64,000 nt of DNA from Candidatus Altimarinota bacterium (GTDB lineage Bacteria; Patescibacteriota; Gracilibacteria; BD1-5; UBA6164): positions 4,052-68,051 of the forward strand of contig JAMONT010000083.1 of the NCBI GenBank assembly GCA_027066455.1, written 5' to 3'. The notes beneath the pieces were generated by a model that saw nothing but the letters and a program-made list of their open reading frames with translations, had not been told where the DNA came from and did not search any database. Positions within the stretch are counted from its first letter, which is position 1. Each line of letters opens with the position of its first letter. Below, in pieces: positions 5,374-63,620 of the stretch. Both the position numbers and the translations under genes were made by a program.

Positions 5374-7287
5374 ATGGCTGAATTAGTAGACACATATATA
5401 GAAGAAGAATTACAAAAAATAGTTTCAAAAGTTCTAGAAATTCATGGAGAGGATTTTAATTTTTATGAAATAGAAGAAATTTGTCTGGATTTTTTAAATG
5501 AAATTCCAGCTAAAATAAAAGATGTTACTAAAATTAAAAGACTTATAAAATATGTAAATAAAGAGTTTGAATTAGAAAATAAAGTAGGGAATGAAAATTT
5601 TCATTCTTTACAAAATAATTCACAATACAGTTTAGGAAAAATTCCAAAATATTTATTTGAATGAAAAACAAGAATTCAATCATGATTAATTAATATTATA
5701 GATTTAAAAGCAAATATTTGATTAACTGAACTTTTTGACTGACTTAATTTAAAAGTAAATAAAACTGATAAAATAGCTCTAATTTGAAAAAATGGTTGTT
5801 GAAAAACAACTTTATTAAAAATGATTATTTGAAAAAAAATTGATTTAATAGAAAGTGAATGAGAAATAAAACTTGCTCAATGATTAAATATTTGATACTT
5901 ATCACAAGATTTATTTTGGGAATCAGAAAACAATACTTTAGAAGAAGAAATGTTTAAAATTTTTCCAGAAATAACACAAAAAGTTGAAGAATTAGAAAAA
6001 ATCTCCCTTTTACAAAGGGAGTACCCGGAGGGGGAGGGATTTGAATGTGAGTACACAAAAATCCAAGAATTAACAGAATATTTACTAGAAAATGATTGAT
6101 TTAAAAAATATGAATTGCAAAAAAATATTTTGAAATATTTTGGTTTTTCAGATGAAAGAATGAAACAAAATGTTTTAAGTTTATCTGGTTGAGAACAAAC
6201 AAAAGTTCAAATTGCAAAATTTTTAATACAGCAAGTAGATTTATTAATTCTTGATGAACCAACAAATCATTTGGATATTGAATGAATTATTTTTCTTGAA
6301 AAGTTTTGTCAAAATTGGAAAAAAGCAATAATATCAATTTCTCATGATAAAAAATTTATTGATAATTCTAGTGAAAAAATAGTTGAAATTTATAGACATA
6401 AGGCTTTTAATTATGTTTGAAAATACTGTGATTATGAAAAACAAAAACAAGAAAGGTATGATAAAGAACTAAAAGATTTTAAAGACCAGAAAAAAATAAT
6501 TGATGAAGAAGAAGTATATATAAATAGATTTAGAGCAAATTCAGCAAAAGCATCAGCTATTCAATCTAGAATAAAAGCACTTGATAAAGTAGTAAGATTA
6601 AAAGAACCTGAACATGATCAAAAAGCAAGATTTATTTCTATTTCAACAACTAGAAGATTACCAGAAATAATTATAAAATTAAGAAATATTGAAGTTTGAT
6701 ATGATGAAATTTTAATAGAATTGCCAGAAGAAATTAATGTTTTGAAAACAGATAAAATATGAATAATTTGAGCAAATTGAACAGGTAAAACTACACTTTT
6801 AAAAACAATTTTATGAGATTTGAAAGCTTTAAATTGAACAAGTGAAATTAATGAAACTTTAAAAATTGGTTCATTTGCACAAATTCTTGATGAATTAAAT
6901 TTAGAAAATTCAATAATTAATGAATTATCTGAAAGTTTAAATGAGCAACAAGAAGTAAGAAAAATTTTGTGATGACTTTTAATAAAATGAGAAAAAGTTA
7001 ATCAAAAAATAAACTCTCTCTCATGATGAGAAAGAGCAAAAGTATGACTTACAAAAATGCTTTTACAAAAACCAGATATAATAATAATGGATGAACCTAC
7101 AAACCATCTAGATTTGCATTCAAAAGAAATTATCAAAACAATGTTAAAATGATTTGACTGAATGACTCTTATTGTTTCACATGACAGAGATTTACTTGAA
7201 AATGTATCTAATAAAATTTGGTTAATTAGAGATAAAAAAATGGAAATTTTTGATGAAGTTGAAAAATGAATTAGAGAGGTTTATTAA
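5374..7287 (+). CDS. ABC-F family ATPase (tandem ABC domains, EttA/Uup-like) with an N-terminal extension of about 100 aa
   Basis: Two Walker A motifs (GKNGCGKTTLLK, GANGTGKTTLLK), two signatures (LSGGEQTKV, LSGGERAKV) and two Walker B motifs (LLILDEPTNHLD, IIIMDEPTNHLD). 638 codons with TGA=Gly. Confidence 0.85.
6002..6051 (+). repeat. GC-rich palindromic element, variant copy, in-frame inside the ABC-F gene
   Basis: tctcccttttacaaagggag-tacccggagggggaggg-atttgaatgtgag. Translated as SLLQREYPEGEGFECE in the linker of ABC domain 1. Confidence 0.6.
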
Positions 7288-7320
7288 TCTTAAAAAGTAA
7301 AAAGTTCTATTTCATAATTA

Positions 7321-9147
7321 TTATTCTACAGTTACACTTTTTGCTAAATTTTGAGGTTTGTCTACATCTTTTCATAATTCTTTTGCTATTTCTACAGCAA
7401 AACTCCACATTGGAATTAAAGGAATAAAAGGAGCTAAAATATGAGAAACTTCTGGAACTTCTATAATATCATCATATAATTCTTCATTTTTATCTCACTT
7501 TGTAACAACTCATAAAACAGTTGTATTTCTTGCTTTTACTTCTTTTATATTTGAAACTGTTTTACTTTTTAAAACTCATTTCAAATTCAAAGCAATACAA
7601 GGAAAATCTGGTCAAACAAGAGCTAAGGGGCCATGTTTTAATTCTCAAGTTGAATAACATTCACTATGTAAATAAGTCAATTCTTTTAGTTTTAAAGAAC
7701 ATTCTTCAGCTGTTCAATATAATAAATTTCTTCATAAAAAGAAAAAGTTTTTATATTTAGAATATTTTTTTGCTAATTTTTTGATATTTTTTGTATTTCA
7801 AAGTTGAGATTTCATCAAAATATTCAATTCTCAAATTTCTCAAATTATTTCTCTAATTTTAGAAATTTGAAGATTTCTTTTTTTACCAAAACTAAGTGAC
7901 ATAAGTAATAAAACTCATAATTGTCCTATAATATTTTTTGTAGAAGCAACTCAAATTTCTATTCAAGAATGAGTATATAATCAATAATCACACATTCTAG
8001 CAACTGTTGAACCAACAACATTTACAAGCCCAAAAGTAATTCATCATTTTTCTTTTACAATTCTAACAGATTCCCTAACATCTGCTGTTTCTCCTGATTG
8101 ACTAATAAAAACATAAAGAGTTTTTTTATTTGGCAAGAAAGTATCATATAAAAATTCTGAAGAAATTGTTACCAAGCAAGGCATTCAAGCTAATTCTCTA
8201 AACCAGTAAGAACTTGTTACTCAAGCAAAATAAGATGAACCACTTGCAATAATCTCTATTCTTTCAATATCAAGTTCTCAAAGTTCAGCCAAAGTTTCAT
8301 TTGTAATTGTTTTATTTTCAAAATTAATTCTTCATTTTAAACAATTTAGTAAAACTTCTGGTGCTTCATAAATTTCTTTTTCAGTAAAAGTTTCAAAATC
8401 TCACTTTGTAGCTATTTGAAAATCTTCAGTAATTTTCTCAGAATTTCTAAAAATTTCTTTTCATAAACTAAAAATTTTATGTTTTCAATTTTTTAAAACT
8501 ACTATTTCTTTATCTTCTAAAATAAAAAATTCTTTACAATTTTGACTAAGAGCATTTATATCACTAGACAAAAAACAAGCTTGTGTATCAATTCCTAAAA
8601 TCATAGGACTTCAAAATTTTGTTCATATTAAAACATCAGGATTTTCAGTGTCAATAATTCCAAGAGCATAAGCTCAAACAAGTTTTTGAGTAAGTTTTGA
8701 AATAGTTTCTATCAAATTTCAATCAAATAAATCTTCTATTAATTTTGCAATAATTTCAGTATCAGTTTCAGAATAAAATTCATATCATTTTTTTATTAAA
8801 TCTTTTTTAAGTTCAGCATAATTTTCAATAATTCAATTATGAACAACAAAAAATCTTTTATTTGAAGAATAATGAGGATGAGTATTTTTTTCTGTAACTC
8901 CTCAATGAGTAGCCCATCTTGTGTGAGCAATTCCTGAATTATAATCTTTATCTTTATTTTTATTTAGTTCTACTTTTCCTGCCAAATTACTAACTTTTCA
9001 AACAGCTTTTTCTAAAAAAATTTTTCCACCTTTAGTAATTCAAAAAACTCAAGCACTATCATAACCTCTATATTCCAAATTTGTTAATCCTTCAACCAAA
9101 AAAGGTATAGAATTTTTATTTCAATTATAAGCAAATATTCAACACAT
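7321..9147 (-). CDS. glmS: Glutamine--fructose-6-phosphate aminotransferase
   Basis: 609 codons. N-terminal MCGIFAY..., GIAHTRWATHG, SQSGETADV, C-terminal ...DKPQNLAKSVTVE. Dense TGA-Gly codons explain the absence of any track ORF on this strand. Confidence 0.9.
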
Positions 9148-9214
9148 AGTTTTATTTTTAAAAAGTACAAAATAATATTTTTTTTATGGTATTATCAAAA
9201 AAAGTTTTTAGTAT

Positions 9215-10765
9215 TTAAACTTCTTCCTCTTTTTTTCTAAAACTAAGAGCTTCTAAAATATGTTTTGTTTCTATATTTTTTATCTCTTCTAAATCAGCAA
9301 TAGTTCTAGATAATTTTAAAATTCTGTAATAAGCTCTTGCTGATAAATCCATTGAAGCAACAGCTTGTTTTAATATTTTTTCACTTTCTGAATCTAAAAT
9401 ACAAAACTTATTAATTTGTTTTGTTTGCATTTCAGCATTAAAAGTTATTTTAGTATTTTCAAATCTTTTTAATTGCAAAATTCTAGCTTTTTCAACTCTT
9501 GTTTTAATACTTTCACTTGTTTCTCTTCAAGAGTAATCTTCTCAAGTTTTAAATTCTTCTGTTTTCACTTTTGGAACTTCTATAAAAATATCTATTCTAT
9601 CAATTAATGGTCAAGAAAGTCTTGATCTGTAATTAGAAATTTGTCTAATTGAACAAATACATTCTTTATCTGGGTCAGTTAAAAAACCACAAGGGCAAGG
9701 ATTCATTGCTCAAACTAAAATAAAATTAGCAGGATAAGTATAAGTTGCATTTACTCTGTTTACTGTAATCATTCAGTCTTCTAAAGGTTGTCTTAAAACT
9801 TCTAAAACTGATTTTTCAAATTCCAAAATTTCATCTAAAAATAAAACTCATTTATGAGATAAAGAAATTTCTCCAGGTTTAGCATTAGTTCAACCTCAAA
9901 TTATACTTATAGCAGAAGCTGTATGATGAACTGTTCTAAAAGGTCTTTTTGTAATAATTGGATTATCATGAGTTAAAAGTCCAGAAATAGAATAAATTTT
10001 ACTGATTTCTATAGCTTCATTTATACTTAATTCAGGTAAAATTCCAGAAAAACTTTTTGATAACATAGTTTTTCAACTTCAAGGAGGTCATTCCATAATT
10101 ATATTATGTCCTCAAGCTGCTGCTATTTCTAAAGCTCTTTTTGCATGATTTTGACCAATTACATATTTAAAATCAAATTTTGAATTTTCAGAAAACTTAT
10201 TTGCTTTTTTTGAAAAATCTTTGAAATCAAGTTTTGGTGTTATATCTAAAGCAATTTCAGAGTTTAACATTTTTATAACTCAAGTCAAATTTTTTACTCT
10301 AATAATTTCAATTCAAGGAATTATTGAAGCTTCTGGAGAATTTTCATATGGTATAAAAATTCTTTTAAAACCTTTTTCTTTTGCTTTTATAGTTGCTGGT
10401 AAAATAGAATTTACTTTTCTTAAATCTCAGTTTAAAGATAATTCTCAAATAAAAATTGATTCAGAAATTAATTTTTCTTCTATTTCTCCAGAATTAAGTA
10501 AAATTCCTATAGCAATAGGAAAGTCAAAACTAGGCCCAGTTTTTTTAATGTCAGCTGGAGCTAAATTTACAATAATTCTATTGGTTGGAAGTTTTTTTCA
10601 AGAATTTTTCAAAGCAGACCTAATTCTTTCCTTAGATTCTTGAACAGATTGATCAGGAAGTCCAACTATTTTAAAAGCTGGCATTCAATTATTTATATCA
10701 ACTTCTATTTCTATTATTTCTGAATTTAATCAATTTACAGTTATAGAATGTATTTTTGAAATCAT
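9215..10765 (-). CDS. comM: Mg-chelatase-like AAA+ protein ComM/YifB
   Basis: 517 codons. GPPGSGKTML Walker [12 protein letters not shown] Walker B, MNPCPCG motif. The C-terminus equals track ORF 9215-9478. Confidence 0.9.
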
Positions 10766-10825
10766 AATTTTTATTTTTTTTAAGAAAATATTAAGGAAAT
10801 TTTATAAAATAAAAAACCTCATAAT

Positions 10826-10872
10826 GAAGCCTCTTTCCTTTTGACCAAAAGGAGAGAATTCAAGAGAGGAAT
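10826..10872 (+). repeat. GC-rich palindromic element, intergenic copy
   Basis: gaagcctctttccttttgaccaaaaggagagaattcaagagaggaa. Ends about 7 nt from the stop codon (10879-10881) of the minus-strand gene. Confidence 0.75.
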
Positions 10873-10878
10873 ATTATT

Positions 10879-11280
10879 TTATAAACCTAATTGTGCTTTT
10901 ATATCATCAATAGCTCAAGCATCTTGTTGTTCAACTTCTTTTTTTGCTTTTTCAGCAATATAAACTTCTCCTAATTGAATCCATTCTTTTTTTTGTTTTG
11001 TTAATAACTTTTTTATATCTTCTGGATGTTTTCCAGCTAATTCTCTGAATTTTTGTCTTTCTTCAACAAAAACTTTTGTAAGTTCATCAAATTGAAATTG
11101 AGAAAGTCCAGGTTGTTCATCATTTTTAGCAACTGCATCAATAACTCTTTTTTTCTCATCAGTATTCAAAGAAAGAGAATGTTTTAATAAATCACAAAAT
11201 TCTTCCACATTAACAACAACATCATCTCTATGATTTTTTAATAATGCTAATATTATTTCATTAACTTCTATATCTGTCAT
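10879..11280 (-). CDS. Hypothetical protein
   Basis: Track ORF 10915-11280 extended through one TGA to TAA at 10879-10881 (adds GAIDDIKAQLGL). Confidence 0.6.
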
Positions 11281-11363
11281 AATTTTACTTGATTAAAAAA
11301 TATTTTATACCTTTTTATAATATGAAAAAAAGCTAAATAGTCAAAAAAATTTTAAAAAAAAAA

Positions 11364-11410
11364 TTCCCCACTTGAATTCTCCCCTTTTGTAAAAAAAGGG
11401 AAGAGGCACA
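11364..11410 (-). repeat. GC-rich palindromic element, intergenic copy in reverse orientation
   Basis: The reverse complement reads tgtgcctcttccctttttttacaaaaggggagaattcaagtggggaa. Confidence 0.7.
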
Positions 11411-11427
11411 TAATTAATTACAATAAT

Positions 11428-11475
11428 TTGTAGCCCCCTTCCTTTTGACCAAAAGGAAGGGATTCAGGGAAGGAA
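11428..11475 (+). repeat. GC-rich palindromic element, intergenic copy
   Basis: tttgtagcccccttccttttgaccaaaaggaagggattcagggaaggaa. Ends 4 nt from the stop codon 11480-11482 of the beta-propeller gene. Confidence 0.8.
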
Positions 11476-11479
11476 TTTT

Positions 11480-13876
11480 TTATTTCATTTCAACATCAGA
11501 AATTTTTTCAAAAGTTTCCATATTATTTTCAAGTATTTTTTTATTTGAAATAGAATAAATATTATCTCAAATATATAAAGCTCTATTTATAAAAGAATCT
11601 CTTAATTGCCATCTTTTATTTGCTATATAAGTTCAAATACCAGAATCTTGATAACAATATTCAGGAATATAATTACTTTTTTGTGGACAATATTCTCTTC
11701 AATCAAGCAAAATTCTACATCTTTCTTTTTCTTCTTTTTGTTTTATAAAATCATCACATTTTACTTTTCTTTCATTTTCTAAAGCTTTATAATCAATATG
11801 ACTAATTCTTCATAATTTTTTTATTCCATAATCTTTATCTATTTTAATAGAATATAATCCTGCAAAAAAATCTATATTTTTATAAGAATCTTTATTTTCA
11901 TTTTTTGTAATTTCTACAGGTAAAAGTAAAGTTTTTTTATCTTTATTAAAAATAAACATTCTTGGATTATTGGTAGCTTCACTTCTACTTCCAGCATCTC
12001 ACATTGTCAAAGTGTGTAATTGTTTTACTTCTATAAAACCTTTTTTATCAGATTTTGAATTTTTAGGATTTTCACATTTTTGTACACATTGCATTGTGCA
12101 AATATCAGCTCAAGAAGGACAAGCAGAAGCACATTCATTTTTTACACAAGAACTAGGACAACTGTTAAAAGAAAATTGACTACATTCTTGACTTACACTA
12201 TTTGTTAATTTATCATAATTTATTTGGTATAAATCTAATTTTAATCATCATTGTCTAGTTCTTCAATTAGTTTCAAAAGTATCATAACCTAATCAAATTA
12301 TATGATTTTTATCATAAGGATGAAGATAACTTGAATAACCAGGAATTTTTAATTCTCAAATAACTTTTGGTTTAGATTCATCTTTTAAATCAATTACATA
12401 AAATGGGTCTATATCCATAAAAGTAACCAAAAATAATTTATCTCACATAAATCTAGAAGATTTGAAATTTTCATCTTTTCAAAGTCCTCAAAGACTTCAA
12501 AATAATTTCAGATTTTTATCTAAAATATAAACTCCTGTTTCTCTTTCAGGATATCTTTTTTGTGTAATAATTCTGAAATTATCTCATCTTTCATCCATAG
12601 AATATTGAGTCAAAGGATTTCAAGGAATAATTGTAGAAGTTTGATATTTTATATTATTTTTAGAAATATTCAATTTATGAATTAAAGAATTTTCTCAAGC
12701 CTCAAAATAAGGCATTATACAACGAGCAAAAGGTGGACAACTTACTTGATTATTATTGTAAAGTCTGTCTGTAATATAAAGATTTTTTAAACTCATATAA
12801 ATTTCTGTAGTATTTCAAACAACAACTTTTGTTTTAACAGGAGCATCAGAAATTTCTGTATCTACAACTGAAATAATATTATAACTTGGAGAAAAATCAT
12901 ATTTTTTTAAAGTATCTTTTGTTGGCAAAGAATATTCTATTTCACTACAATTGGCAACATTTCAAGAACTTATATTAAAAGGAAATTTTTTTCATTTTAA
13001 AACTAAATTTTGTTTAGAAGAATTTTTTGTTCAATTTACTTCAATTTTTCTAGGAATTATTCCATCTCTAGGAATTATTATATCATCAACATTTTTAAAA
13101 TTATGAAAAGGAATATTAAAAGAATTAGAAGAAATTACATAAAGATATTTTCCTATTTTTCTTGATTTTGCTAATCTTCCATCAACAACATAAAGTTTTA
13201 ATAATTTTGGTTTTACAATATTTGTAGTATCAAAAACTATAACATAAGTTTTATCTTGATAACTTCTCCAATAATTATTTTTTATTTTATTATATCTAGA
13301 ATATCAACTTGATAAAATAGTTAATCTATTTTTTCCTAAATATAAAACTGGAGAATTAAAATTTTTTGGAATTTTTATTTTTTTAATAATTTTTAGTTTA
13401 TTTGAAACAGAAGTTATATAAACAGCTTTATTTTTAGAATTATAATAATAAATATATTTTCCATCAGTTTTTACTATTTCAGATTCATCAACTCAATCTA
13501 CTTGAGTATTTGTTCTTGAAAAATTTCAATCACTAGTTCTAGAAGCAGAAGTAGGAACAGCATTTCAAGTAGATTCAAGTTGTAGAAGAGTTTCACTAAA
13601 ATCATCAGATGCTATAGTATCTATCATTCTATGTTTATAATTATATGAATATTTATTTTTATTTAATTTCCAGTAAGTTTTTATATATTTTTCCATTACT
13701 GATTCTAGATTTTCACAAGATTTGAAAGTTTGCAATTTAAAACTTTCTGAAATTTCAGAATTTTCTTGTTTATCTAAAGCATCAATGATTTGATTATCAT
13801 CAATTTGAGCAAAACTTGTAGAACTAATTATAAATAAAGCCAAAGCACCCAAAAAAACTTTTTTGATATTTGCCAT
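11480..13876 (-). CDS. Secreted beta-propeller domain protein (PF09826-like)
   Basis: Signal peptide MANIKKVFLGALALFIISSTSFAQ. Motifs TNTQVDGVDESEIVKTDGKYIYY and SSRFMGDKLFLVTFMDIDPFYVIDLKDESKPKVIGELKIPGYSSYLHPY. In frame with track ORF 13565-13909. ATG 13876 is preferred over the track TTG start. Confidence 0.75.
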
Positions 13877-13908
13877 AATTTTTTTAATTAAAAAATAAGA
13901 TATTCTCA

Positions 13909-13970
13909 ATTATAAGAATATCTTTTTTTAAAGCAAATTTTTAATGTGAAGATTTTGTGAAGAAATTTTT
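13909..13970 (-). promoter_or_regulatory. Conserved promoter cassette, copy 1
   Basis: Minus-strand reading: TTCACA-aaatc-TTCACA, then TTGCTT (-35), a 16 nt spacer, and TATAAT (-10, 13909-13914). About 33 nt upstream of ATG 13876. Confidence 0.6.
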
Positions 13971-13984
13971 TAGCAAATTTTAAA

Positions 13985-14869
13985 TTATTCTCAAGGAATT
14001 TCAAAGTCTCATTTTGCAATAATATATCAATTTCAACTTTTTATATAAAATTTATATTTTCAATTTTTTTCAATTTTTATACTATTTTCTCATAAAAGAA
14101 CAGAATGAAAAATTATTTTATCTTTTAATTTATAGGAAAGTATTTTTTTAGGTGTATTTACATTATAATAATAAAATATTCTATTATTTTCATCATAATC
14201 AGTCATACACATAAGATTTTTAATTGTATAATTTAATAAAAGATTTTTTCAATTAATTTCAAAAGTATATTTTAACATTGAATAAGGTTCTAATTGTCAA
14301 CATAAAATTTTAATATCATCAACACCTGAATTTGCAGCAATTTCAAAAACAAAACCTCTAGTAGCTAAAGCATCATAATCAGTAAATTTTTTAACATCTC
14401 ATTTTTTTTCAACTGCAAAATTTACAACTTGTTCTTGCCAAGTTTCTTTTTTTGTAGAATCATAAGAATATTTATCACCATAACTGGCTTTTACAATCAT
14501 TGCAACTGCTTCTGCTTTTGTTATATTTTTTTCAGGATTAAATTTTTTATTTTTGGCTATTAAATTATTATCTATTAAAGCTTCTATTGTATAACAAGCC
14601 CAAGAATTTGGATTTGTAGCAGAAACATCTGTAAATAAATTATCACATTTTTCCTTTTTTTCTATTCAAGCAAGTCATCTAGCCACAACAGCTATTTCTT
14701 GTCTTAAAACAAAATCATCAAGTTTATATTTTTCAGGATTTTCTAAATGGTTATTTATTATATTTTTTTCAGCTAAAAAATTGGCAGAAAGAATTTCTGA
14801 TTTAGTATATGCATTTGTATTATTTATAATAAATAAAGAAAAAATTATAAATAAAAATATTTTTCTCAT
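13985..14869 (-). CDS. Secreted protein with N-terminal SLH-like (S-layer homology) repeats
   Basis: Signal peptide MRKIFLFIIFSLFIINNTNA, then LSANFLAEKNIINNHLENPEKYKLDDFVLRQEIAVVA and a second ...ITKAEAVAMIVKA segment. 295 codons, in frame with track ORF 14675-14869. Confidence 0.55.
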
Positions 14870-14905
14870 AAAAATTTTAAAATTAAAAAAATAAATTACT
14901 TAATT

Positions 14906-14967
14906 ATTATAAGTAATTTATTTTTTTAGCAAATTTTTAATGTGAAGATTTTGTGAAGAAATTTTTT
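14906..14967 (-). promoter_or_regulatory. Conserved promoter cassette, copy 2
   Basis: Same TTCACAaaatcTTCACAttaaaaaTTTGCT core (14928-14967). -10 TATAAT at 14906-14911. About 37 nt upstream of ATG 14869. Confidence 0.6.
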
Positions 14968-14980
14968 AAAAAATTTATTT

Positions 14981-17662
14981 CTACATTCATATAAGTAAAA
15001 AAATAACTTCTTCTTCCAATTTTTTATTTAAATATTTAAATAAATTTTCATATTTTTTATGAGTTAAAATCAAAATATTTATTTTTGAAATAATTGATTT
15101 TAATTTAGCTATTTTTTGTTTATTAGTATAATTATATTTATCCATTTTTAAAATAAATTTTTTAATTATAGAATCTATTTTATCTTTTAATTCATTTGTC
15201 ACTTCAATTCCATTTTCTTTTTTCTTTTTACAATCTACAGAATAAGTATCTTTTTCTTTTTCACTACAATAATTATCTATCTTTACACATTTTGAAAAAT
15301 TATCAGTTCATTTAACTTTTACTTTTGCTAAACCTGAAATACAAGATTTATTACTATTTTTAGGAATATAAACAGTTTCTTCTCAATATTCCCTTATTCA
15401 AGTATATTTACAATTTTTAACATTAAAGGAATTCGGTAAGAAATGATTTACTTGTTTTTTTGTTTCAAAATTGTAAGAATAAACAGGATATTCCATACAT
15501 TCATAAGCTCATTTTTGAGTGTTAATAGTTTCTATTTTATCATATCAAATCACACAATTTTTAGAATTATAAATTTTTTTAGTTCAAGAAGGAACATCAT
15601 AGTTTTTACATCATACTTTACAATCTACAGAATTATATTTGTTTTCATTTGTAGAACATTTTCAGTCACCAATTTTTACACACATTTTATCTCATTTTCA
15701 ATCAGAAAGTGCTACTAAAGAATAAGCACATTCTCTTTTTATTGTTAAAGGTAATAAACTATAAAATTTTGTATTTAAACTTCAAAATTCTTTAACTTTT
15801 CAAGTATAATCATTTGAGTAATAAGAAAAAGAATAATTACTGTATTTCATAAATTTTTCAAATTCTTTACTTTCAAAAAAATAATCAAATATTTCTTCTT
15901 TATAAGTATTATTATATTTTTCTAAAAATTTTTTCCAATTTTGTAATTCATAACTAGTAATTTGTCTTTTTAATCAAAATTTATAAAGATTTTTTATAAA
16001 TTGTTCTTTTGAAATATTTTGAGTTAAGACATTATCTTGACTAACAAATAATTCTCAATTTGCTGCATCTTTTAATATGTCTTTTATTATACTGTTTTGT
16101 ATTTGATTTTCAGAATATTTTTTTGATCAAAATATTTTTTTATTTTGATAATAATTTATTTCTGTTAAAGAAGGCATTCTCCACAAAACTTCTTTATAAA
16201 TATAATTTATAAATTTTATATTTTCATCTTTTTCTTCTTTTATATCAGGTTTATTTATTTCTTCAATTAATTTATTATTTGGAGTGAAAACTGTCCAAAA
16301 ATTTCAGTTGTTACATAAACTTCCAGAATAATTTGCTGGATATTTTCAACTTTTTCAACTTCTAAGTTTATTAGTTAATTCTTGTAAACTAGAAGAAATA
16401 TACATTCAATGTTGGTCTTTTAATCATTCATATTTTGTTCAAATAAATTTTGAATTATAACATTTTTTTGGAGAATTTATATAAGAATAATCCATTTTAT
16501 ATAAATCACTTTTAAAAGTTCATAAATTTTTTATAACTTTTTTATTTTTTATTTTCCAATCAATTAAATCAAATTTTATTAAAGAAACTTTATTAGAATT
16601 TGAATTAATAGCTCAAGAAGGGTGAGCAAAACTTAAAGAATATAATCAATATAATTTTATATTATTTACTTTACAAATTTTTTGATAAATATTACAATTT
16701 ACTGAATTAGTTCAGACTTTTTTCATTTCACATCAATTTTCAGCTATTGGTTTTGGTTTACATACTGAATTTTCAACATCAATAAGATTATTGTTAAAAG
16801 TTCATTCAATATAACAATTTACTTTTGTTTTTCACTTAAATTGTTTAACCCATTCATCTGATATTTTTCTTGATAATCATCATACAAAATCTCAATATTT
16901 TCAAGGATTTATATTTTTAGGTGGAAATAAAAATAATTTCATTTTTTTTGTACTTCATTGACAAATTAAATTAAAATTAGTTTGGTTTATGTTAGAGGAA
17001 ATTCATCAAATATGACCTCATTGATTTAAAATTCTATAGCTATTTTTTTCCTTACTATAAGGGTTATTATATTCATCATTCAAAACTTTTAATTTTATAT
17101 TAACTCAAGAATTTCAAATAATTATTTCTCAAGAAATTGGTTTTATAGAAGTTTTTATATTTTTATAAAAATCTTCACATTTTCATTTAAACAAAAATTT
17201 TGAATTTTTTCTTTCCATTTCACATTTATTTCAAAAAGTTGTTCTTTCTCAATTATAAATTCAGCAAACAGGTATATATTCTTTTGTACAAGCGTTCAAA
17301 GAATTTTCTAAAACTTTTATTTTTAATTGTTTTGAAGTTTTATACCCATTAGTATCATCACAACTAATTCATAAATTCATACTATTTATTTTAGAAAAAT
17401 TTTTATGTTTAGCTGTTAAAGTATAAACTCAATTTGTTCAAGTTCTAAGAATATCTGTCCAATATTTTCATTCTGAAATTTTAATATGATTTCAAAAAGT
17501 GTAACAATCTTTAAATCATTTTGTTTCCCATTTTACTTGAAATTTATCTCATTCAAAAACTGTTTTAGGTCAAGTAAAATTTAAAATTGTATTTTCAGCA
17601 TAACTATTATTTATACTAAAAAAACTAAAAATTAATATAAATATTAAAAATCTTTTTTTCAT
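14981..17662 (-). CDS. Large secreted cysteine-rich protein with a Kazal-like domain and DUF4214-like segments
   Basis: 894 codons. Signal peptide MKKRFLIFILIFSFFSINNSYA. Kazal-like ACTKEYIPVCGIYNGERTTFGNKCEMERKNSKFLFKGKC (17174-17293). The C-terminus equals track ORF 14987-15202. Confidence 0.65.
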
Positions 17663-17695
17663 AAAAATTTAAAATTAAAAAAATAAATTATTCTC

Positions 17696-17765
17696 ATAAT
17701 AAGAATATCTTTTTTTTAAGCAAATTTTTAATGTGAAGAAATGTATGGGGTTTGTGGAAATTTTT
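17696..17765 (-). promoter_or_regulatory. Conserved promoter cassette, copy 3 (distal box diverged)
   Basis: TTCCACAaaccccatacatttcTTCACAttaaaaaTTTGCTT, 16 nt spacer, TATTAT (17696-17701). About 34 nt upstream of ATG 17662. Confidence 0.5.
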
Positions 17766-17770
17766 AAAAA

Positions 17771-19273
17771 TTATTTTTCAACACTAACAAAATTTTCAAC
17801 TATTTTATCCCACTTTTCTATTAAGTTAATATTGTCTTTATCCTTTAAAATTTTATATAAATATTCTTTATTAGCATACTTTTTATAAATTTCATCATAT
17901 TTATTATGGCCTTTATCTGATTCAGGTCATTTTCATTTAAGATTTCATACAAAAATAAAATCTGTTCAATTTATTTTTTTAATATATATTTTTTGCCACT
18001 TTTCTCCATAACCACCACATCCTCATCATTCTGTAATAATTCAAAACTCAAATTGACTTAAATTATTTTCTTTACTTTCACAGTATACATATTTATTTCA
18101 TTTTATTAGTGGTCAATCACATTTATATGAAATAGTTTTAGGGATTTTATTAGAATATAAACCACAAACATTTTTTATTCAATCTAAAGTTGTGATAAAT
18201 AAATCATTATAAAAATATTTTCATTCTAATCATTCTTCTAATTTATCTTTTTCTAATTTGAATATTTTTCATCAAATTGTTATTTCTTTGAATTTTTCTT
18301 TTATATTTAAAAATATTATTTTTTCTTTTTTTATAAGATTATTTCAAATATTTACTTTTAAAAATAATTTAATTTCTCAATTTTCTAATAATTCATAATT
18401 TTCTAATTTCTCCCATTTTATAGGCAAAACATTATTTCAAAAATCTTCTATTTTAGAATTGTCTTCATATATTTTTTTTATTTCCAAATTATTTGAAATT
18501 TTAAAAAGAGAAATATTTTCTTGTCATCATCAAATAGTAAAATAAATTCAACTTTTTCATTTTTTTATATTTTCTATAATTCAGTTATGTTTTATTTTTT
18601 TTAAAGTATTTGAATTTAAATTATAAATATAATTTGTTGTTTCTGTAAAAAAATTTTCTCAATTAGTAGAAAACAAAAGGATATTTTTATATTTTCAAAG
18701 TATTTTTATTTCAGAAAAAATAAAGTCTCATACTCACATTAATTTTTCAGCAAATTTTTTTTCTAAAATTATATTTTGAGTTTTATTCTTAAAATCATAT
18801 AAAACAAATTTAATTTTTATTTCTTCTATAAAATCTTTTTTATTATTTAAAAATTTTTTAGATAAATCTTCAGTATAAATATACTTATTTTCTCTAGTTC
18901 TATAAAAATTTTTTCCTGTATTCTTCTCAAAAATAATTATTTTATAATCTCAATATTTTTTTTCTTTGACTATATTGAAGCTTAAATCATTTATTTTTAA
19001 AATTTCATTTATATAAAAGTGAATATAATTTAAAATCAATGATTTATTATTATTAGTTTTTTTTCAATTTTTCTCTATATATAAATTTATTTTTTCTAAA
19101 AATAAACTAGTTTTTTTTAATCAATCTGTTTCAATTTTTTTAAAAAAATAATTATTTAATATTTTTTGTATTTTTTCTTGTTTTTCTTTTTGTATTTCAG
19201 CATTAACTTGAAAATTTCAAAAACTAAAAAATAAACTAAAAACTAAAATTAGACTTAATAAAACTTTTTTCAT
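17771..19273 (-). CDS. Hypothetical secreted protein
   Basis: 501 codons with TGA=Gly. Signal peptide MKKVLLSLILVFSLFFSFGNFQVNA. No family recognised. Confidence 0.55.
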
Positions 19274-19309
19274 AAAGATTTTAGGGTTAATGTAAAATAA
19301 GTTAACTAA

Positions 19310-19372
19310 AATATAGTCAACTTATTTTTTAAAGCAAATTTTTAATGTGAAGATTTTGTGAAGAATTTTTTT
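19310..19372 (-). promoter_or_regulatory. Conserved promoter cassette, copy 4
   Basis: TTCACAaaatcTTCACAttaaaaaTTTGCTT, 16 nt spacer, TATATT (19310-19315). About 37 nt upstream of ATG 19273. Confidence 0.6.
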
Positions 19373-19375
19373 AGA

Positions 19376-19568
19376 AAATTTATTTCTACATTCATATAAG
19401 TATAAGTAAAAAAATAACTTCAATTCCATTTTCTTTTTTCTTTTTACAATCTACAGAATTATATTTGTTTTCATTTGTAGAACATTTTCATTCACCAATT
19501 TTCACACACATTTTATCTCATTTTCAATCAGAAAGTGACATTAAAGAATAAGCACATTCTCTTTTTAG
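19376..19568 (-). pseudogene. Deleted remnant copy of the 3' end of the 14981-17662 gene
   Basis: Near-identical to about 14981-15012, 15203-15245 and 15621-15735 joined head to tail. Junctions lie at the short repeats acttc and caatctacagaat. No start codon or signal peptide found. Confidence 0.5.
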
Positions 19569-19656
19569 AGAAATTCACAACTCTTTTAAAAGTCTTTTGA
19601 AATTGTTTTTTATAAATATTTTACTACCATTTTTTATATACTTCCAAATATTTTTT

Positions 19657-20337: not shown

Positions 20338-20404
20338 ATTTTTTAAATTTAATTTATAAAATATTTTTTTTATTATATTTAAATAAATGTTTTTTACAAA
20401 AGTT

Positions 20405-23974: not shown

Positions 23975-24019
23975 ATTTTTTTTATTAAGAATTATTTTAT
24001 AATTAAACTTTCCCTTTTT

Positions 24020-24067: not shown

Positions 24068-24069
24068 AA

Positions 24070-48365: not shown

Positions 48366-48414
48366 AAATAAATTTTTTTATTAAAAAATATTAATTGCAT
48401 TATAACTAAAAAAT

Positions 48415-48448
48415 TAAAAAAATCTAGAAAAATTTCTAGATTTTTTTA
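48415..48448. terminator. Terminator-like hairpin (recurring module)
   Basis: aaaaaaATCTAGAAAaATTTCTAGATttttttt. The same hairpin core recurs at 3931-3948 and 4328-4347. Confidence 0.55.
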
Positions 48449-49814: not shown

Positions 49815-49867
49815 ATTTTTTTTAATTATTTTTTATATTTCCTTAAAAATTAAAACTAATTTTTTTC

Positions 49868-49902
49868 CCTCCTTACTAAGGAGAGGATTTTGGATTTTCA
49901 GA
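49868..49902 (+). repeat. GC-rich palindromic element, truncated copy forming the 3' end of a gene
   Basis: ccctccttactaaggagaggattttggattttcag. On the minus strand it encodes ...SENPKSSP followed by TAG, which lies in the hairpin loop. Confidence 0.5.
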
Positions 49903-50538
49903 AATTGTTTTACTAATTATTTTTTTAATTATTTTCTTTTTAATAATTTTTGGAGGATTTTTTTCTAAAGTTTCAAGTAAAACTTTTAAATAAATATATA
50001 AAACTTCTGTTCTTAATTGGTCAATACTTATATTACAAGTTTCTTTATCAACCAAATAAATATTTTTATTTTGCATATCTATTTTCCCACAATGCTCTAC
50101 TTTTGATAATAAAGTTTTGAATTCTCTCAATTTTTCTCACAAAATTTCTTCAGCATCATCTGGTAACTTTACTGTAAAATTTAATTCATCAACATCATTT
50201 TCATCATAAAAATCATAGTTTTCATCTTCAGAATCAAAAACTTCCAATTCTTCATCAGAAAAAAAATATCTATTATGAATTTCTTCTAATTTTACAATTT
50301 TTTTATTTATTTCCATTATTTCATCTATTTTTGCTGATTGTTCTAATTTTATTATTCTTCTATTTCTTATTTTTTCTAATTTTTCTTCATAAACTTTTAT
50401 AATTTTTGCAATAAATTTTTCTAATTCTGCTCATTTTTGTTTGAAATAATCAGCAAAAGATTTTTCTTTAAATTTGTCTAAATTACTAGAATCAAAAGTT
50501 TCTTTAAAAATATCTTTTATTTTTTTTACAATATCCAT
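49876..50538 (-). CDS. Hypothetical protein (acidic central region)
   Basis: Track ORF 49876-50130 extended upstream through TGA to ATG 50538. 221 codons. Confidence 0.5.
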
Positions 50539-50624: not shown

Positions 50625-52508
50625 TTATTTTGTAAGTAAATTATAATATCACATAAATTTATAACCAACTTTTTCCATTTCTATTCAAACAACTTGAGCA
50701 TAAAAACAAGTTAAATTATTATCACAAATAGTCACAATTTCTACATCTTTTGGAATTTGTTTAATAGATTCTGCCCATTTATTTTTTGACAAATAAACCA
50801 AAGGAATATTAAAACTTCATTTTAAATGAGAATTATCAAAAACTTCTTTTTTTCTAACATCAATTAAATAAATTCAATTTTTGTATTTTTTTTCTAAAAT
50901 ATTTTTTGAAAATTTGTATTTATATCTAGGTTTTTTATAAACTTTAAAAACATCTTTTTCTCACTTATAGTTTCATTTTTCTTTTATCCATCAACTTACT
51001 CAATTTTCTAAAAATCTCACATCAAATCATTTTGTTTTCAAAAATTCAGCAACTTCTATTGATTTTGTTTTTTCCCAAGTATAAACAACTATAATTTTCT
51101 TTTTATCCAATTTATCATATCCACCATTTATTAAATCAGCAAATCTGATAAACACACTTCCATCAATATAACCAGCCTTTCTTTCTATATTTTCTCTTGC
51201 ATCTAAAAGTAAATATTTTTTATTTTTTGTTTTTAAAATATTTTTTAATTCTATATTTTTAATTGATTTTATATTTATTTTTTTATTTATTTTTTTATTT
51301 TCTTCTTTTTTTTCTAAAGGAGTAATTTTTATAGTTTTACTTGTTTTTATCTTAAATTTTCAATTTTTTAATTTAATTAATTCTTTCAAAACTAAATAAT
51401 TTTTTAGTCAATTTTTATCATAAATTTCTAAATCAATAAAATAATTATTTTTAGTATTTTTCTTTAAGTAAACTTTATTTACAACTATTTTTTTTACATC
51501 TTTATACCAATTTTTATACTTTTCAAAACTAGTTTTTTTAGCTGAATTTTCATAAGCTTTTTTTAATTCTTTTTTTACTATACTATTATAATGATTTCTA
51601 AAAAATTTTTCCTCACTACTTTGCTTTACAGCCCCTTTTTCCACACCCAGGAGAGAGGATTCAGGAGAGAGGGTTTTTTTGGTTTCTGCTTTTTTTCACT
51701 TCACCAAAATTATTTTTCTTTTACTTTTTGCAAGCTCTTTTTTATAATTTTCTAGTTCTTTTTTATAATCTTGTTTTTCTTTTTTAGATAATGATTTTTC
51801 ATTTTCTATTCAAAAAAAATCATCTTCTTCATCTTCAATATTAATAGAAAAAATATCTGTTTTAGTATTTGTTTTAGCTTTTTCTAATTCTAATTCTCTT
51901 AATCTTTTTCTATTTTTTAATTTTTGAGAAATACTATATTCTTCAACTAAATTTTCAGAAAAATCTCAAGAATTTACTTTATTAATGCTTTTATCAATAT
52001 TAATTAAATCTTGTTGTAATCTTTTTATATTTGTTTGAATTTCATTACTTTTCAAAATATTTTCATTTGTACTAAAAGTGTCTTTTTCTATTTTTTTAGA
52101 ATTTTCTATTTTTTCTTCAAGTAATTTAAATTTAGAAGTTTGTTTTTCTAATTCTATTTGTAAAAGTTTTCTTCTAGCTTTTTCACTATTAAACTTTATT
52201 TTTATTGAAGTTGTTCACTTTTTTTCTTCATTTTTCAAATTTAATATTTGATTTTTTTGAAAATTTAAATCAAGTAAAAATGAAAATCATAATGAAATCA
52301 AAATAATAACAGAAAAGAAAAAGTTTTTTTTATTTCTTTCTATATATTTTGTTTTTGTATAAAAGTGAAAAGTAATTCATATAAAAAAAGTCAAAGCAAT
52401 AAAATATAACCAAAAATTTGATTTTGGTTCAAAATTATTTATATTTTCTGCATTAGAAAAGGAAATAAATAAAAAGAATATTAAAAATATTTTTATTAAT
52501 TTAATCAT
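50625..52508 (-). CDS. Membrane-anchored coiled-coil protein with two C-terminal rhodanese-like domains
   Basis: 628 codons. Start, stop and track ORF 51408-51644 share one frame. ...LLLDARENIERKAGYIDGSVFI... and ...YLIDVRKKEVFDNSHLKGSFNIP...ICDNNLTCFYA... are rhodanese signatures. Confidence 0.6.
51629..51674 (+). repeat. GC-rich palindromic element, consensus-like copy inside the rhodanese-protein gene
   Basis: acagcccctttttccacacccaggagagaggattcaggagagaggg. The track ORF start (MEKGAV...) lies inside it. Confidence 0.8.
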
Positions 52509-62403: not shown

Positions 62404-62474
62404 TTTTTCCCTATTTTGAGGGGGGAAGGTAATTTTTTTTAAATTAGTTTTAAATATTAATCATTCATATTTTT

Positions 62475-63527
62475 TTAAATTACTTCCCATTGTTCAAATT
62501 CTAAAATTTCTCAACTGTCTAAAAAAATTTTTCTATCTTCAAATTTTTCCAAAATTCAATTCTTTTTTTCTCTTGAATAAATATTTTCTAAACAAATTTT
62601 TTTTCAAATATTTTTTTCTAAAATTTCAGTTTGTTTTCCTATCATAAAAATAATTTTATCTGTATATTTTTGACCTAAATTAGCATTTTCTCAAAAATAT
62701 TTTGCTGAACTTTCTATATTTTTTATAAAAGAATTTTCATCTTTTTGTTCAACAAATTCATTGAATTTTTTTGTAGATTTCATAAATTCTTTATGAACAT
62801 TCAAAACTTCAGAATTATACATTTGTATATCTCCATAAAGTTTTGGATTTTGCCCAACATATCTACCAACTGAACTAATCATTATTTTATAAATTGGTGA
62901 AACAAAAGAAAAAGATTTTTTTATATCAAACTCTAAATTTTTCATTGTATCAGCTAAAACAAACATATTAAAATGTGTCAAACCTTGAACTACAGCCATC
63001 ATTTTGTCGTGTTCTTCTGGAGTTTCTTCTACAACTTTTGCTCAAGAATTTTCTAAAAAATTCTTTAAAAAAATATATCTTTCATCATTTTTATCATTTT
63101 TATTTAAAGGAGTTAAAACAAAAATTTGTCCAGCAATTGTTGAAATAAATGGCCCAAACATTGGGTGAGTTGGTAATATAAAAACATCTTCTGGAGAATA
63201 TTTTTTCAAAGCTTTTGCAGGTCATTTTTTTATAGAACAAACATCTAAAACAATTGAATCTTTTTTCAAAAATGGTGCAACTTTTTCTATAATTTCATTC
63301 ATAAAAGCAATTGGAACAGCAAATACAGTTATATCAGAATCTTTTACTGAAGCTATATTATCTACAGAAAATAAACAATTTAATTCTTTAGCAACTTTTT
63401 TTAATTTTTCTTCATTTCTTCAAGTAATTGTAAGTTCAACTTTTTCTTTGAAATTTTTTAAAATAAATTTTGCTAACCATAAACCAAAACCATCACTTGC
63501 TCATATAATTGTTATTTTTTTTATCAT
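62475..63527 (-). CDS. tyrA: Prephenate dehydrogenase
   Basis: MIKKITIIGASDGFGLWLA (NAD fold) ...THPMFGP...EEHDKMMAVVQGLTHF... In frame with track ORF 62691-63002 and extended through TGA to TAA 62475-62477. Confidence 0.8.
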
Positions 63528-63571
63528 TTTTTATAATGTTAATTTTATTTTTTTCAAAATTTCAATATTTT

Positions 63572-63620
63572 TGTAGCCCCTTTCTCCCTATCAGGGAGAG
63601 AGGATTCAGGTGAGAGGGAG
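63572..63620 (+). repeat. GC-rich palindromic element, consensus-like intergenic copy
   Basis: tgtagcccctttctccctatcagggagagaggattcaggtgagagggag. Ends 1 nt from the stop codon 63622-63624 of the tex fragment. Confidence 0.85.

Follow-up and report, generated by a model that had tools for sequence, protein, structure and literature searches.

A family of repeat units of about 48 nt is dispersed through the 64-kb window, which is the whole stretch of DNA analysed, both in spacers and in frame within open reading frames. This supports the original prediction of dispersed palindromic elements. Its description of paired hairpin arms is correct but incomplete, because a mirror-related third tract gives the unit a three-part architecture compatible with a triplex. 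The repeats are probably selfish elements of the REP/MITE kind that have expanded in some Gracilibacteria, and whose single-strand triplex fold would be the target of a DUF559 nuclease.

Read along one strand, the unit consists of a TGTAGCC head that contains the GTAG tag of REPs, a pyrimidine arm of 10-11 nt, a short loop, a purine arm complementary to the pyrimidine arm, the linker ATTCA and a third tract of G, A and T; the consensus first given for the plus strand is confirmed. The third tract is a mirror of the purine arm and co-varies with it. A reading of this second GA-rich tract as a direct repeat was rejected: in the first copy set the mirror rule accounts for 94% of the cells, compared with at most 67% for the direct-repeat model. 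Watson-Crick pairing between segments 1 and 3 has a mean of only 5.4 bp. In over 100 distinct copies, drawn from some 20 species of Gracilibacteria, nearly every triad is C-G·G, T-A·A, T-A·T or T·G·G. The 1460 cells of 146 unique copies contain 573 CGG, 373 TAA, 315 TAT, 56 TGG and 44 CGA, although related copies share descent, so that fewer independent events took place than these cells suggest. The third strand never has C at C-G pairs in these 146 copies.

The hairpin is paired in 95.7% of the cells with co-variation at all 10 pairs, and 208 cells are compensatory compared with 62±7 in shuffles (0/500). The third-strand rule holds in 90.3% of the cells, compared with 64.3±1.1% in shuffles (0/500) and 21-48% when the strand is slid, a signal that comes mostly from G positions since both A and T are allowed opposite A-T pairs. 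The first copy set has 47 distinct arm types. At T·G wobbles the third strand tracks the purine arm (39 G, 8 A and 6 T), and T·G wobbles outnumber C·A by 70 to 20, which indicates that the folding strand is the head strand. Families with other heads and linkers follow the three-segment rule too.

These triad rules match those of the class II purine-motif intrastrand triplex repeats PIT, BoxC and TM_ECO (Hoyne & Maher 2000, 2002; Holder et al. 2015, PMC4666352). The strand order of those repeats is likewise pyrimidine, purine and reverse-Hoogsteen domain, and they are also multi-copy, mainly intergenic, often arranged in inverted pairs and patchily distributed among relatives. The arms and second loop of TM_ECO type A are nearly identical to those of a second Gracilibacteria family, CCCTCTCCT-cta-AGGAGAGGG-TTA-GGGTGAGGT. 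The window family differs from these repeats in its GTAG-containing head, its ATTCA second loop, its 10-11 triads mixing A/T and G/C and its residence in a code-25 CPR genome of 21% GC. TM_ECO copies are near-identical and always intergenic, whereas the arms of the window family come in dozens of versions, with compensatory triple changes, and some of its copies are intragenic and in frame. Its dimers have the pyrimidine arms inward, in contrast to the third strands in E. coli. TM_ECO adopts a stable triplex fold in vitro as single-stranded DNA, RNA reportedly does not form purine-motif triplexes, and DMS footprinting of TM_ECO in vivo did not reveal a stable triplex (PMC4666352). For the window family, a triplex would presumably form in vivo with single-stranded DNA as the folded species.

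The GC content of the window is 21%, and an unbiased scan for GC-rich islands of 40 nt returns little else than these elements and tRNAs, apart from two short genic stretches. A covariance model trained on copies from other genomes only gives exactly nine full-length matches in the window (E 2e-14 to 4.5e-6), with 10822-10875, 11426-11479, 23468-23520, 24017-24069, 30570-30623, 44429-44481, 51624-51676 and 63569-63621 on the plus strand and 11360-11413 on the minus strand. Three variants, first placed at 6002, 21100 and 21492, have neither the TGTAGCC head nor the ATTCA linker, yet follow the three-segment rule perfectly. The model and the rule uphold 12 of the 14 copies originally proposed, nine canonical and three variant. 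The copy proposed at 48034 is an ordinary 7-bp hairpin that breaks the rule, has no model match and is not a member. Membership is doubtful for 49868 (49864-49900, plus strand), at best a decayed remnant, which overlaps the stop of 49876-50538(-), scores 6/7+6/7 and is matched by the model in its hairpin portion only, with E about 2. As predicted, all upheld copies but one (11/12) are on the plus strand, the density is about one per 5 kb and six copies are intergenic; the number within open reading frames is six and not eight. A scan for the architecture only, over 1.29 Mb, gave 223 matches compared with 2 in Markov controls, which places the family beyond chance. The use of code 25 was also correct: TGA has a Gly-like frequency, and four of four TGA codons in EF-Tu align to Gly of E. 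coli EF-Tu.

The canonical element at 10825-10873(+), with the head TGAAGCC (model E 3.4e-12; 10/10 pairs and 10/10 mirror positions), is intergenic with its tail 6 nt from the stop of 10879-11280(-) and its head 59 nt from the comM start. The canonical elements at 11360-11413(-) (E 1.8e-8) and 11429-11477(+) (E 3e-13) form a heads-inward doublet, with the tail of the latter 3 nt away from the 11480-13876(-) stop. The same distance separates the canonical element 24020-24067(+) (E 2.1e-11) from the stop of gene 24070-25731(-); an element with a different arm type is found at the orthologous position in L111. Canonical element 30573-30621(+) (E 2.1e-14) occupies a divergent spacer and precedes the start of 30644-32050(+) by 23 nt. 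The intergenic canonical element 63572-63619(+) (E 4e-11) lies with its tail about 3 nt away from a stop (63622-63624), that of a minus-strand S1-domain gene, while 44 nt separate its head from the 62475-63527(-) start.

Three copies are in frame and antisense in the membrane-protein gene 20405-23974(-): the canonical element 23471-23518(+) (E 3e-11), which encodes the peptide PLSPESSLPYREKGAT, a variant with the mini-hairpin linker tCCCgaaGGG at 21100-21136(+) (8/8+8/8) and a variant with the short linker TTG at 21494-21529(+) (9/9+9/9), also picked up by the architecture scan. The L111 ortholog has a 17-aa gap exactly at the first of these, and gaps at the other two. The RlmE/FtsJ methyltransferase gene 44135-44881(-) (Pfam FtsJ, E 7.6e-47) contains the canonical element 44432-44479(+) (E 1.6e-11), again in frame and antisense and encoding LSPESSLPIGEKGAT; this insert is missing in 14 of the 14 closest homologs, one of them 80% identical. 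The diverged canonical element 51627-51674(+), with the head TACAGCC (E 4.5e-6), is in frame and antisense in the rhodanese-domain gene 50625-52508(-), judging by the continuous ORF and Pfam, and encodes TLSPESSLLGVEKGAV. The variant 6003-6041(+) (8/8 pairs, 8/8 mirror positions) is in frame and sense in the ABC-F ATPase gene 5374-7287(+) (Pfam ABC_tran), with the layout CTCCCTTT-tac-AAAGGGAG-taCCCggaGGGg-GAGGGATT in which taCCCggaGGGg forms a mini-hairpin linker, and the L086 ortholog has a 10-aa gap at this element. Rickettsia palindromic elements (RPE) are likewise palindromic and in frame in protein genes of a small AT-rich genome, where they encode short hydrophilic loop peptides. They are unrelated in sequence and taxon, measure roughly 100-150 nt compared with 48 nt and, unlike the window family, have no described triplex-compatible third segment.

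The elements are gained and lost over time. Filled and empty orthologous sites both occur, as had been suggested for comparison, with a doublet in L066 where L050 has only 'TAAA', and one orthologous spacer can carry different subtypes in different relatives. The insertions in RlmE, the ABC-F ATPase and the membrane protein are clean and in frame, and identical copies with unrelated flanks are found within one MAG. The same sequence does not recur at orthologous positions in distant lineages; orthologous sites are empty or hold other subtypes. The density of 1.6 per 10 kb here is approximately eight times that of unselected sister loci (0.2 per 10 kb), and the closest relative has no canonical copies. 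As in MITEs and free-standing homing endonuclease genes, there are short non-autonomous units and longer nuclease-carrying units with the same inverted ends. The proposed Correia/MITE analogy is not supported: terminal inverted repeats with a target duplication were not observed on single units, neither a target-site duplication nor a precise footprint of excision could be defined, and no transposase of a known class was found.

The analogy with REPs and RPE is good, given the GTAG tag, inverted dimers, positions downstream of ORFs and in-frame intragenic copies. GTAG REPs form REPtrons together with RAYT transposases (Di Nocera et al. 2013, PMC3733652; Nunvar 2010; Messing 2012). At least 84% of the copies are intergenic, 17 of 17 dimers are heads-inward and the median distance from tail to stop codon is 17 nt, habits that match GTAG REPs (PMC3733652). 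Both groups have GTAG at one end of a short imperfect palindrome, high copy number, hetero-dimers among the inverted dimers, a location between unidirectional or convergent genes, and a presumed source in a gene bracketed by inverted repeats. The window family differs in its extra 15-nt third segment, which co-varies with the stem, and in that the bracketed gene encodes a DUF559 PD-(D/E)xK nuclease and not an HUH tyrosine transposase; a search of 1.4 Mb of loci detected no homolog of Y1/RAYT. A search of the literature found no description of such repeats in code-25 bacteria, in agreement with the original prediction.

Tails lie within 25 nt of the stop codons of convergent genes in 35 of 52 cases, and orientation tracks the local gene (62% antisense, p=0.018), a bias that could mean a role at the host level. 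The elements might then serve the host as RNA at mRNA 3' ends, the complement being transcribed just after the stop codon, with a GC-rich hairpin that stabilises or terminates the mRNA and an upstream pyrimidine tract forming an ENE-like class IV pyrimidine-motif RNA triple helix. Pyrimidine-type intrastrand triplexes are possible in RNA (PMC4666352), REPs are often held to act as RNA (PMC3733652), and L070 has an ordinary A-run/hairpin/T-run terminator at the site orthologous to 11429-11477, where the window has the doublet. This explanation is nevertheless unlikely. Same-orientation copies within RlmE, and three within one large gene, cannot act as strong terminators. Nor are the elements canonical terminators: the mRNA strand has no U-tract behind the hairpin, and a generic terminator scan flags none of them. 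On the mRNA strand the third strand has A in 46% of A-U triads, T·G wobbles become A·C mismatches, and protonated C would be required in more than half of the triads, often in runs. Moreover, PIT elements in E. coli have no promoter or terminator activity, and orthologous gene ends in sister species lack elements.

A host function at the DNA level, in duplex or extruded form (H-DNA or cruciform), is improbable; roles of this kind suggested for REPs are to buffer supercoiling, to bind nucleoid proteins or to separate transcription units as a barrier. REPs bind gyrase and IHF, the elements are placed between transcription units, and a mirror repeat with an inverted repeat could extrude under negative supercoiling. 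However, the distribution is patchy and lineage-specific with empty orthologous sites, copies occur inside ORFs, and H-DNA requires a mirror repeat alone; the presence of all three segments on one strand points to a single-strand fold.

The units are very unlikely to be DNA uptake sequences, which would favour self DNA in natural transformation. Uptake sequences are often inverted pairs after genes, the head and linker are conserved, and genes for ComM and for parts of type IV pili are present in the window, but a fixed short word would suffice for uptake. Variable, co-varying arms and a third strand would be superfluous, families with different heads and linkers coexist, and sister species also carry comM yet have a far lower element density.

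The preferred reading, a selfish repeat targeted by a nuclease, draws on the association with DUF559. ORFs for DUF559 (Pfam E 1e-22 to 5e-34) are located between inward-facing elements at no fewer than nine of 11 loci, and the spacer that separates inward heads has a bimodal length, either 7-18 nt or 353-465 nt. Strict two-sided flanking is found for 3 of 8 DUF559 ORFs compared with 1 of 713 other ORFs. A search started from DUF559 proteins alone found triplex motifs within about 80 nt of the gene in seven of seven independent genomic contexts sampled, those with a named source being from Gracilibacteria, Bacteroidaceae and Desulfomicrobium. In E. coli, TM_ECO #9 is 168 nt downstream of ycjD (DUF559), with an estimated chance of about 0.002. 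The geometry varies, with heads inward in Gracilibacteria and third strands inward in Bacteroidaceae and in the doublets of E. coli, and the 64-kb window has no DUF559 gene. DUF559, a Vsr-like PD-(D/E)xK nuclease, may act on the elements.

The nuclease gene might instead be a free-standing parasite resembling a homing endonuclease, which invades already existing heads-inward doublets at their palindromic centres and targets the repeats without mobilising them, while these spread by another route. This is possible but rather doubtful. The fold group of DUF559 includes a group I intron homing endonuclease (PMC3424549), with a weak match to 3R3P, and a cassette equals a doublet plus the ORF. Cassettes sit inside the sufC/sufBD and ilvB/ilvN operons and, as an in-frame insertion, inside RecG, and tandem DUF559 arrays occur. 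Doublet spacers and cassette junctions have no sequence in common, so the doublets could be homing targets and not deletion derivatives. Homing would leave the spread of single units and in-ORF copies unexplained, however, the Bacteroidaceae DUF559 gene is at one fixed site after ruvB, and no pair of empty and filled doublets was found at any one orthologous site.

In the mechanism that we favour, the head strand, when single-stranded, would double back on itself two times to give a class II purine-motif triple helix, built of C-G·G, T-A·A and T-A·T triads. This would put the invariant head and ATTCA side by side at one end of the rod, probably the site recognised by an enzyme that processes or mobilises the element. 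The DUF559 protein is the best candidate for this enzyme, as its gene is bracketed by two heads-inward elements; the abundant heads-inward doublets and the single units would be non-autonomous relatives of such cassettes. Copies would survive at places where they do little harm, such as the first few nucleotides behind a stop codon, spacers between genes and, with the frame kept, loops of proteins that tolerate them. The bracketing by these elements provides a new lead on DUF559, a nuclease gene of unknown function.

The repeated element has a fixed layout on one strand. Aligned without gaps from two anchors, it consists of TGTAGCC, a pyrimidine segment 1, a loop, a purine segment 2, ATTCA, a segment 3 and a T-A-T-T tail, and this pyrimidine, purine, reverse-Hoogsteen order was anchored gap-free in 146 unique copies. 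The only invariant blocks are a 7-mer and a 5-mer, and the arms are variable; a DNA uptake sequence would be an invariant 9-12-mer that suffices by itself and biases uptake. In copies preselected for at most one mismatch in the head, the G, T, A and G of TGTAGCC are conserved to 99%, 88%, 100% and 99%. Segments 1 and 2 are paired in 95.7% of cells with double-sided changes at all ten pairs, giving 208 compensatory cells compared with 62±7 in column shuffles (0/500), and pairing in slid registers is 46-74%. Segment 3 is the mirror of segment 2 and not a direct copy: G faces G, and either A or T faces A. The commonest triads among the 1460 cells of the unique copies are CGG (573), TAA (373), TAT (315), TGG (56) and CGA (44), and a third-strand C is never found opposite a C-G pair. 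This third-strand rule holds in 90-94% of cells, compared with 64.3±1.1% in column shuffles (0/500) and 21-50% in slid registers. All nine canonical copies in the window score at least 9/10 on both the pairing and the mirror relation.

The antiparallel purine motif has exactly these triad rules (G·G-C, A·A-T, T·A-T). The third base tracks the purine arm at T·G wobbles (39 G, 8 A, 6 T), and T·G wobbles outnumber C·A (70 versus 20), which indicates that the strand carrying TGTAG is the folding strand. In the triplex fold, the invariant head and ATTCA would meet at the same end of the rod. In the ITxF definition, class II allows only the triads C-G·G, T-A·A and T-A·T, with no more than one mismatch in a stem of 8 or longer and with loops of 1-6 nt. 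In order, triads and loops the elements conform to this class and are triplex-compatible by design, apart from the variants with a mini-hairpin linker, where the loop is beyond the 1-6 nt limit. ATTCA makes a second loop of 5 nt, and the hairpin loop extends about 2-8 nt past the ten counted pairs, mostly 4-6.

Other explanations of segment 3 describe the copies less well. A direct repeat accounts for at most 67% of cells, far below the mirror rule, and attenuator-like Watson-Crick pairing between segments 1 and 3 reaches a mean of only 5.4 bp. In thermodynamic folding with ViennaRNA, which is restricted to Watson-Crick and G·T pairs, segment 3 is paired in the self-mirror GAGAG subtype alone. 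A G-quadruplex was dismissed by reasoning only: many arm types are without four G-tracts, and segment 1 and the per-position triads would be left unexplained.

The original prediction listed 14 palindromic copies as GC-rich islands, and the 40-nt GC-rich stretches of the window are indeed essentially the listed elements and the tRNAs. A covariance model trained on 79 copies from other genomes, with the window copies excluded, recovers nine of the listed copies at full length (E 2e-14 to 4.5e-6) and otherwise only noise. Three variants (6002, 21100 and 21492) are also genuine; they are devoid of head and linker and obey the three-segment rule perfectly. The copy at 49868 is marginal on this rule and the one at 48034 fails it. 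The observation of a repeat family largely stands. A pattern scan of contigs from one genome per species matched at least 111 loci, and about 95% of the matches listed are from Gracilibacteria, in roughly 20 or more MAGs, the remainder being chance matches in high-GC taxa. When neither head nor linker was required, a scan for the architecture alone gave 223 matches versus 2 in Markov controls and revealed further families with the linkers TTA, GYTAG or a mini-hairpin. Rfam has no family matching the elements at the gathering threshold or at E<=10, and 2.9 million viral contigs contained no copies.

The class II intrastrand triplex motif has already been described as PIT (Hoyne and Maher), BoxC and TM_ECO (Holder et al. 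2015, PMC4666352). TM_ECO has the consensus CCCTCNCCC-N3-6-GGGNGAGGG-N3-GGGNGAGGG, forms a stable triplex in vitro as ssDNA, and is always intergenic and often found in inverted pairs (PMC4666352). DMS protection in vivo and promoter or terminator activity were absent, and purine-motif triplexes reportedly do not form in RNA (PMC4666352). The window copies differ from TM_ECO and BoxC in that their arms contain A/T and their second loop is 5 nt, and they do not match the consensus. A second triplex-type family in Gracilibacteria, CCCTCTCCT-cta-AGGAGAGGG-TTA-GGGTGAGGT, was found by the architecture scan in three comparison loci (in plus-strand coordinates, L043:441-474, L104:5950-5983 and L106:3416-3449) and is also present in L062, L086, L088, L087 and L005; in L087 it forms a mixed dimer with the TGTAGCC family. 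This TTA-linker family is near-identical to TM_ECO type A in arms, second loop and the position of the third-strand T, a likeness due either to convergence or to cross-phylum transfer. No description of such repeats was found in the literature on Gracilibacteria or CPR. By its sequence features, the family belongs to the described class II triplex kind in a Gracilibacteria form that is, as far as the literature found, previously undescribed.

The elements also resemble GTAG-tagged REPs in having GTAG as the end tag of an imperfect palindrome (20-40 nt in such REPs), in being mostly intergenic and downstream of ORFs, and in forming frequent inverted dimers. GTAG-tagged REPs have the head tag and the dimers as well, lie 3' of ORFs and are occasionally in frame within genes (PMC3733652). 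A phmmer search with E. coli RayT against six-frame translations of the loci studied gave no match at E<=10. Like Rickettsia palindromic elements, the window elements lie in frame within ORFs that are not disrupted; the Rickettsia elements differ from them in size and taxon. The analogy with REPs and Rickettsia elements drawn earlier was sound with respect to the GTAG tag, dimers and in-frame copies but overlooked both the triplex design and the relatives already described for it.

Most copies are intergenic (119 of 141; at least 84% by crude ORF calls). All 17 dimers have their heads inward, with a spacing of 2-14 nt and one of 107 nt. When the tail faces the 3' end of a gene it lies at a median of 17 nt from the stop codon (35/52 within 25 nt), and a head facing a 3' end within 25 nt is rare (6/40). 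Relative to the local gene, 62% of copies are antisense (p=0.018). A strand bias linked to replication was rejected since only 47% are antisense to the regional gene majority; orientation follows the local gene instead. Apart from DUF559 ORFs, clustering found no protein family over-represented beside the elements.

The elements do not qualify as canonical intrinsic (Rho-independent) terminators. Six of them lie within 9000-26000, and a terminator scan of that stretch flagged none. CUACA and A-rich sequence come after the hairpin on the mRNA strand, in place of a U-run within 0-2 nt. The elements cannot terminate strongly, because copies in the same orientation lie inside essential-type genes. 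A weaker role at the RNA level is possible, since one ortholog has an ordinary terminator at the site of a doublet (two elements with heads inward) in the window. Near-identical AT-rich hairpins between an A-run and a T-run (AAAAAAATCTAGAAAAATTTCTAGATTTTTT) are present at 3915-3955, 4311-4351 and 48406-48446; from their sequence they look like the ordinary bidirectional terminators of the organism, distinct from the GC-rich elements.

The window has other repeats. A conserved stretch, about 80-120 nt long (...AAGCAAATTTTTAATGTGAAGATTTTGTGAAGAA...), recurs 5' of several minus-strand genes for signal-peptide proteins (13881-14004, 14877-15000, 17668-17739 and 19326-19405) and may be a shared promoter or leader; an AT-rich hairpin resembling a bidirectional terminator comes before it. 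There is also a 125-nt repeat with 96% identity (15617-15741 and 19443-19567). In gene 24070-25731, the D-x-D-x-D-G-type motifs encoded by seven diverged 105-nt tandem repeats (24176-24979) have the look of calcium-binding, thrombospondin-type-3-like repeats.

The family is dynamic, with copies gained, lost and replaced. ORF 20405-23974 is a single genuine gene in which the three copies correspond to gaps in its ortholog at L111. The copy at 44432 lengthens an RlmE/FtsJ enzyme (Pfam E 7.6e-47) by 14-16 residues (LSPESSLPIGEKGAT), an insert missing from 14/14 of the closest homologs, and the 6002 variant matches a 10-aa gap in an ABC-F ortholog. The comparison of empty and filled sites proposed earlier yielded a pair, in that the genes separated by 'TAAA' in L050 have a doublet between them in L066. 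L117 was dropped as an empty site for the copy at 63572 because the genes on its right-hand side are not orthologs. The subtype in an orthologous spacer can differ (the window versus L111; L105 versus L035), and single MAGs hold identical copies with unrelated flanks. No canonical copy was found in 31 ComM-orthologous loci of sister species or in the 20.7 kb examined from the closest relative, and density is 1.6 per 10 kb here versus 0.2 per 10 kb in unselected sister loci.

The in-frame copies are read in a genome for which the assignment of code 25 is supported. Window GC is 21%, and the share of the window in ORFs of 150 aa or more is 5% with table 11 and about 100% with table 4 or 25. The code is correct because TGA has a Gly-like frequency in the window genes and aligns with Gly: 4/4 TGA codons of EF-Tu align with Gly of E. 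coli EF-Tu, and RlmE homologs in the database, translated with table 4, have W at invariant Gly positions. Conserved proteins assign the window to Gracilibacteria, and the best protein matches to it are RlmE (80% identity) and ComM (71% identity).

The protein family associated with the elements is DUF559, a Vsr-like PD-(D/E)xK nuclease family. The 64-kb window has no DUF559 ORF; in other loci (L006, L013, L056, L079, L113, L174 and others) one is found between two inverted triplex-type elements, an arrangement here called a cassette. These homologs are ORFs of 127-148 aa at 11 loci (PF04480 in Pfam, E 1e-22 to 5e-34); among structures 3HRL is the nearest, and an endonuclease domain from a mobile intron is matched weakly. 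At least 9/11 of the loci have the layout [tail-head] ORF [head-tail] with gaps of 7-21 nt, and the flanks of the L113 cassette belong to the GYTAG family. In L013:416-2983 (minus strand), a RecG-like ORF has an in-frame insert of about 155 aa, which is a DUF559 domain between two element-encoded peptides, and the bracketing elements face inward. Strict two-sided flanking was found for 3/8 DUF559 ORFs versus 1/713 other ORFs. The distance from one inward head to the other is bimodal, 7-18 nt in doublets or 353-465 nt in cassettes. Doublet spacers and cassette junctions have no common sequence, and doublets may be deletion derivatives of cassettes or homing targets.

The association was also examined in reverse, with the DUF559 protein as starting point and the gene flanks scanned for class II motifs. 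Such motifs were found within about 80 nt of the DUF559 gene in 7/7 independent contexts: between sufC and sufBD in Gracilibacteria, between ilvB and ilvN in the MAG nearest the window organism, after ruvB in Bacteroidaceae (with a mini-hairpin linker as in the 6002 and 21100 variants), in a second context after ruvB, in Desulfomicrobium, in a context with an upstream doublet, and in a large genome with tandem DUF559 arrays. The element geometry varies between lineages. Identical DUF559 genes are arranged in tandem in L179-L182 (2-3 copies, 702-nt period, two assemblies with 3.3-Mb and 7.4-Mb contigs) with a triplex-type motif between the copies, and L045:4890-5092 has three direct-tandem elements with a 77-nt period adjoining a DUF559 ORF.

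Escherichia coli K-12 has a similar arrangement. The ycjD gene (L161:16408-16761) encodes a DUF559 protein, and its end lies within a degenerate motif, CCCTCTCCC...GAGGGGG. Next come a partly duplicated 3' end of ycjD and, after that, TM_ECO #9 (L161:16205-16240). This copy, numbered as in Holder's table, is 168 nt downstream of ycjD on the same strand; with 23 copies in 4.6 Mb, the chance of a TM_ECO that near is estimated at about 0.002. There is no mention of ycjD by Holder et al. (PMC4666352), surveys of the nuclease superfamily give DUF559 no function, and no paper linking DUF559 with triplex repeats was found in the literature. Salmonella reportedly lacks TM_ECO, and the copy number in E. 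coli strains can be as different as 1 and 29. About 2,000 of 5,426 E. coli genomes have an interruption in the sapF-ycjD-TM_ECO-fabI interval. In the one such genome inspected (APEC E19019, L183), genes for a TetR regulator and an RND efflux adaptor adjoin fabI, which may be an example of rearrangement at the TM_ECO locus. With this efflux-pump region beside fabI, the polymorphism is uninformative about loss of ycjD.

The best-supported interpretation is a REP/MITE-like selfish repeat with a putative single-strand triplex fold that is required for propagation or processing, and with DUF559 as the likely enzyme. Every amplified subtype is triplex-compatible, which puts the constraint on copying and not on individual loci. 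A broader proposal is made tentatively, as a minority possibility: that class II triplex repeats, including BoxC/PIT/TM_ECO of E. coli, are the cis ends or satellites of a widespread selfish DUF559 module that recognises the triplex. The stem has a conserved mismatch, which is T·G in the main subtype of Gracilibacteria and G·A in the majority of TM_ECO copies, and speculatively this is the site read by a DUF559 enzyme of the mismatch-nicking type.

To our knowledge, the origin and role of BoxC/PIT/TM_ECO have been open since the 1990s. Bacterial intrastrand triplex repeats are abundant, yet we know of no function, origin or partner protein for them, and of no evidence so far for the importance of the triplex in vivo. 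The three-way compensatory variation means that the triplex-compatible design itself is maintained. If the DUF559-module proposal is true, the covariation in Gracilibacteria would amount to comparative evidence for selection on an intrastrand DNA triplex. The recurrent adjacency of DUF559, in every context sampled and at ycjD, makes a long-standing puzzle testable in E. coli and gives the family an interest well beyond the window genome. The elements also affect the annotation of code-25 genomes, because they add 12-16 residues to real proteins (RlmE, ABC-F), and they affect studies of genome plasticity in CPR.
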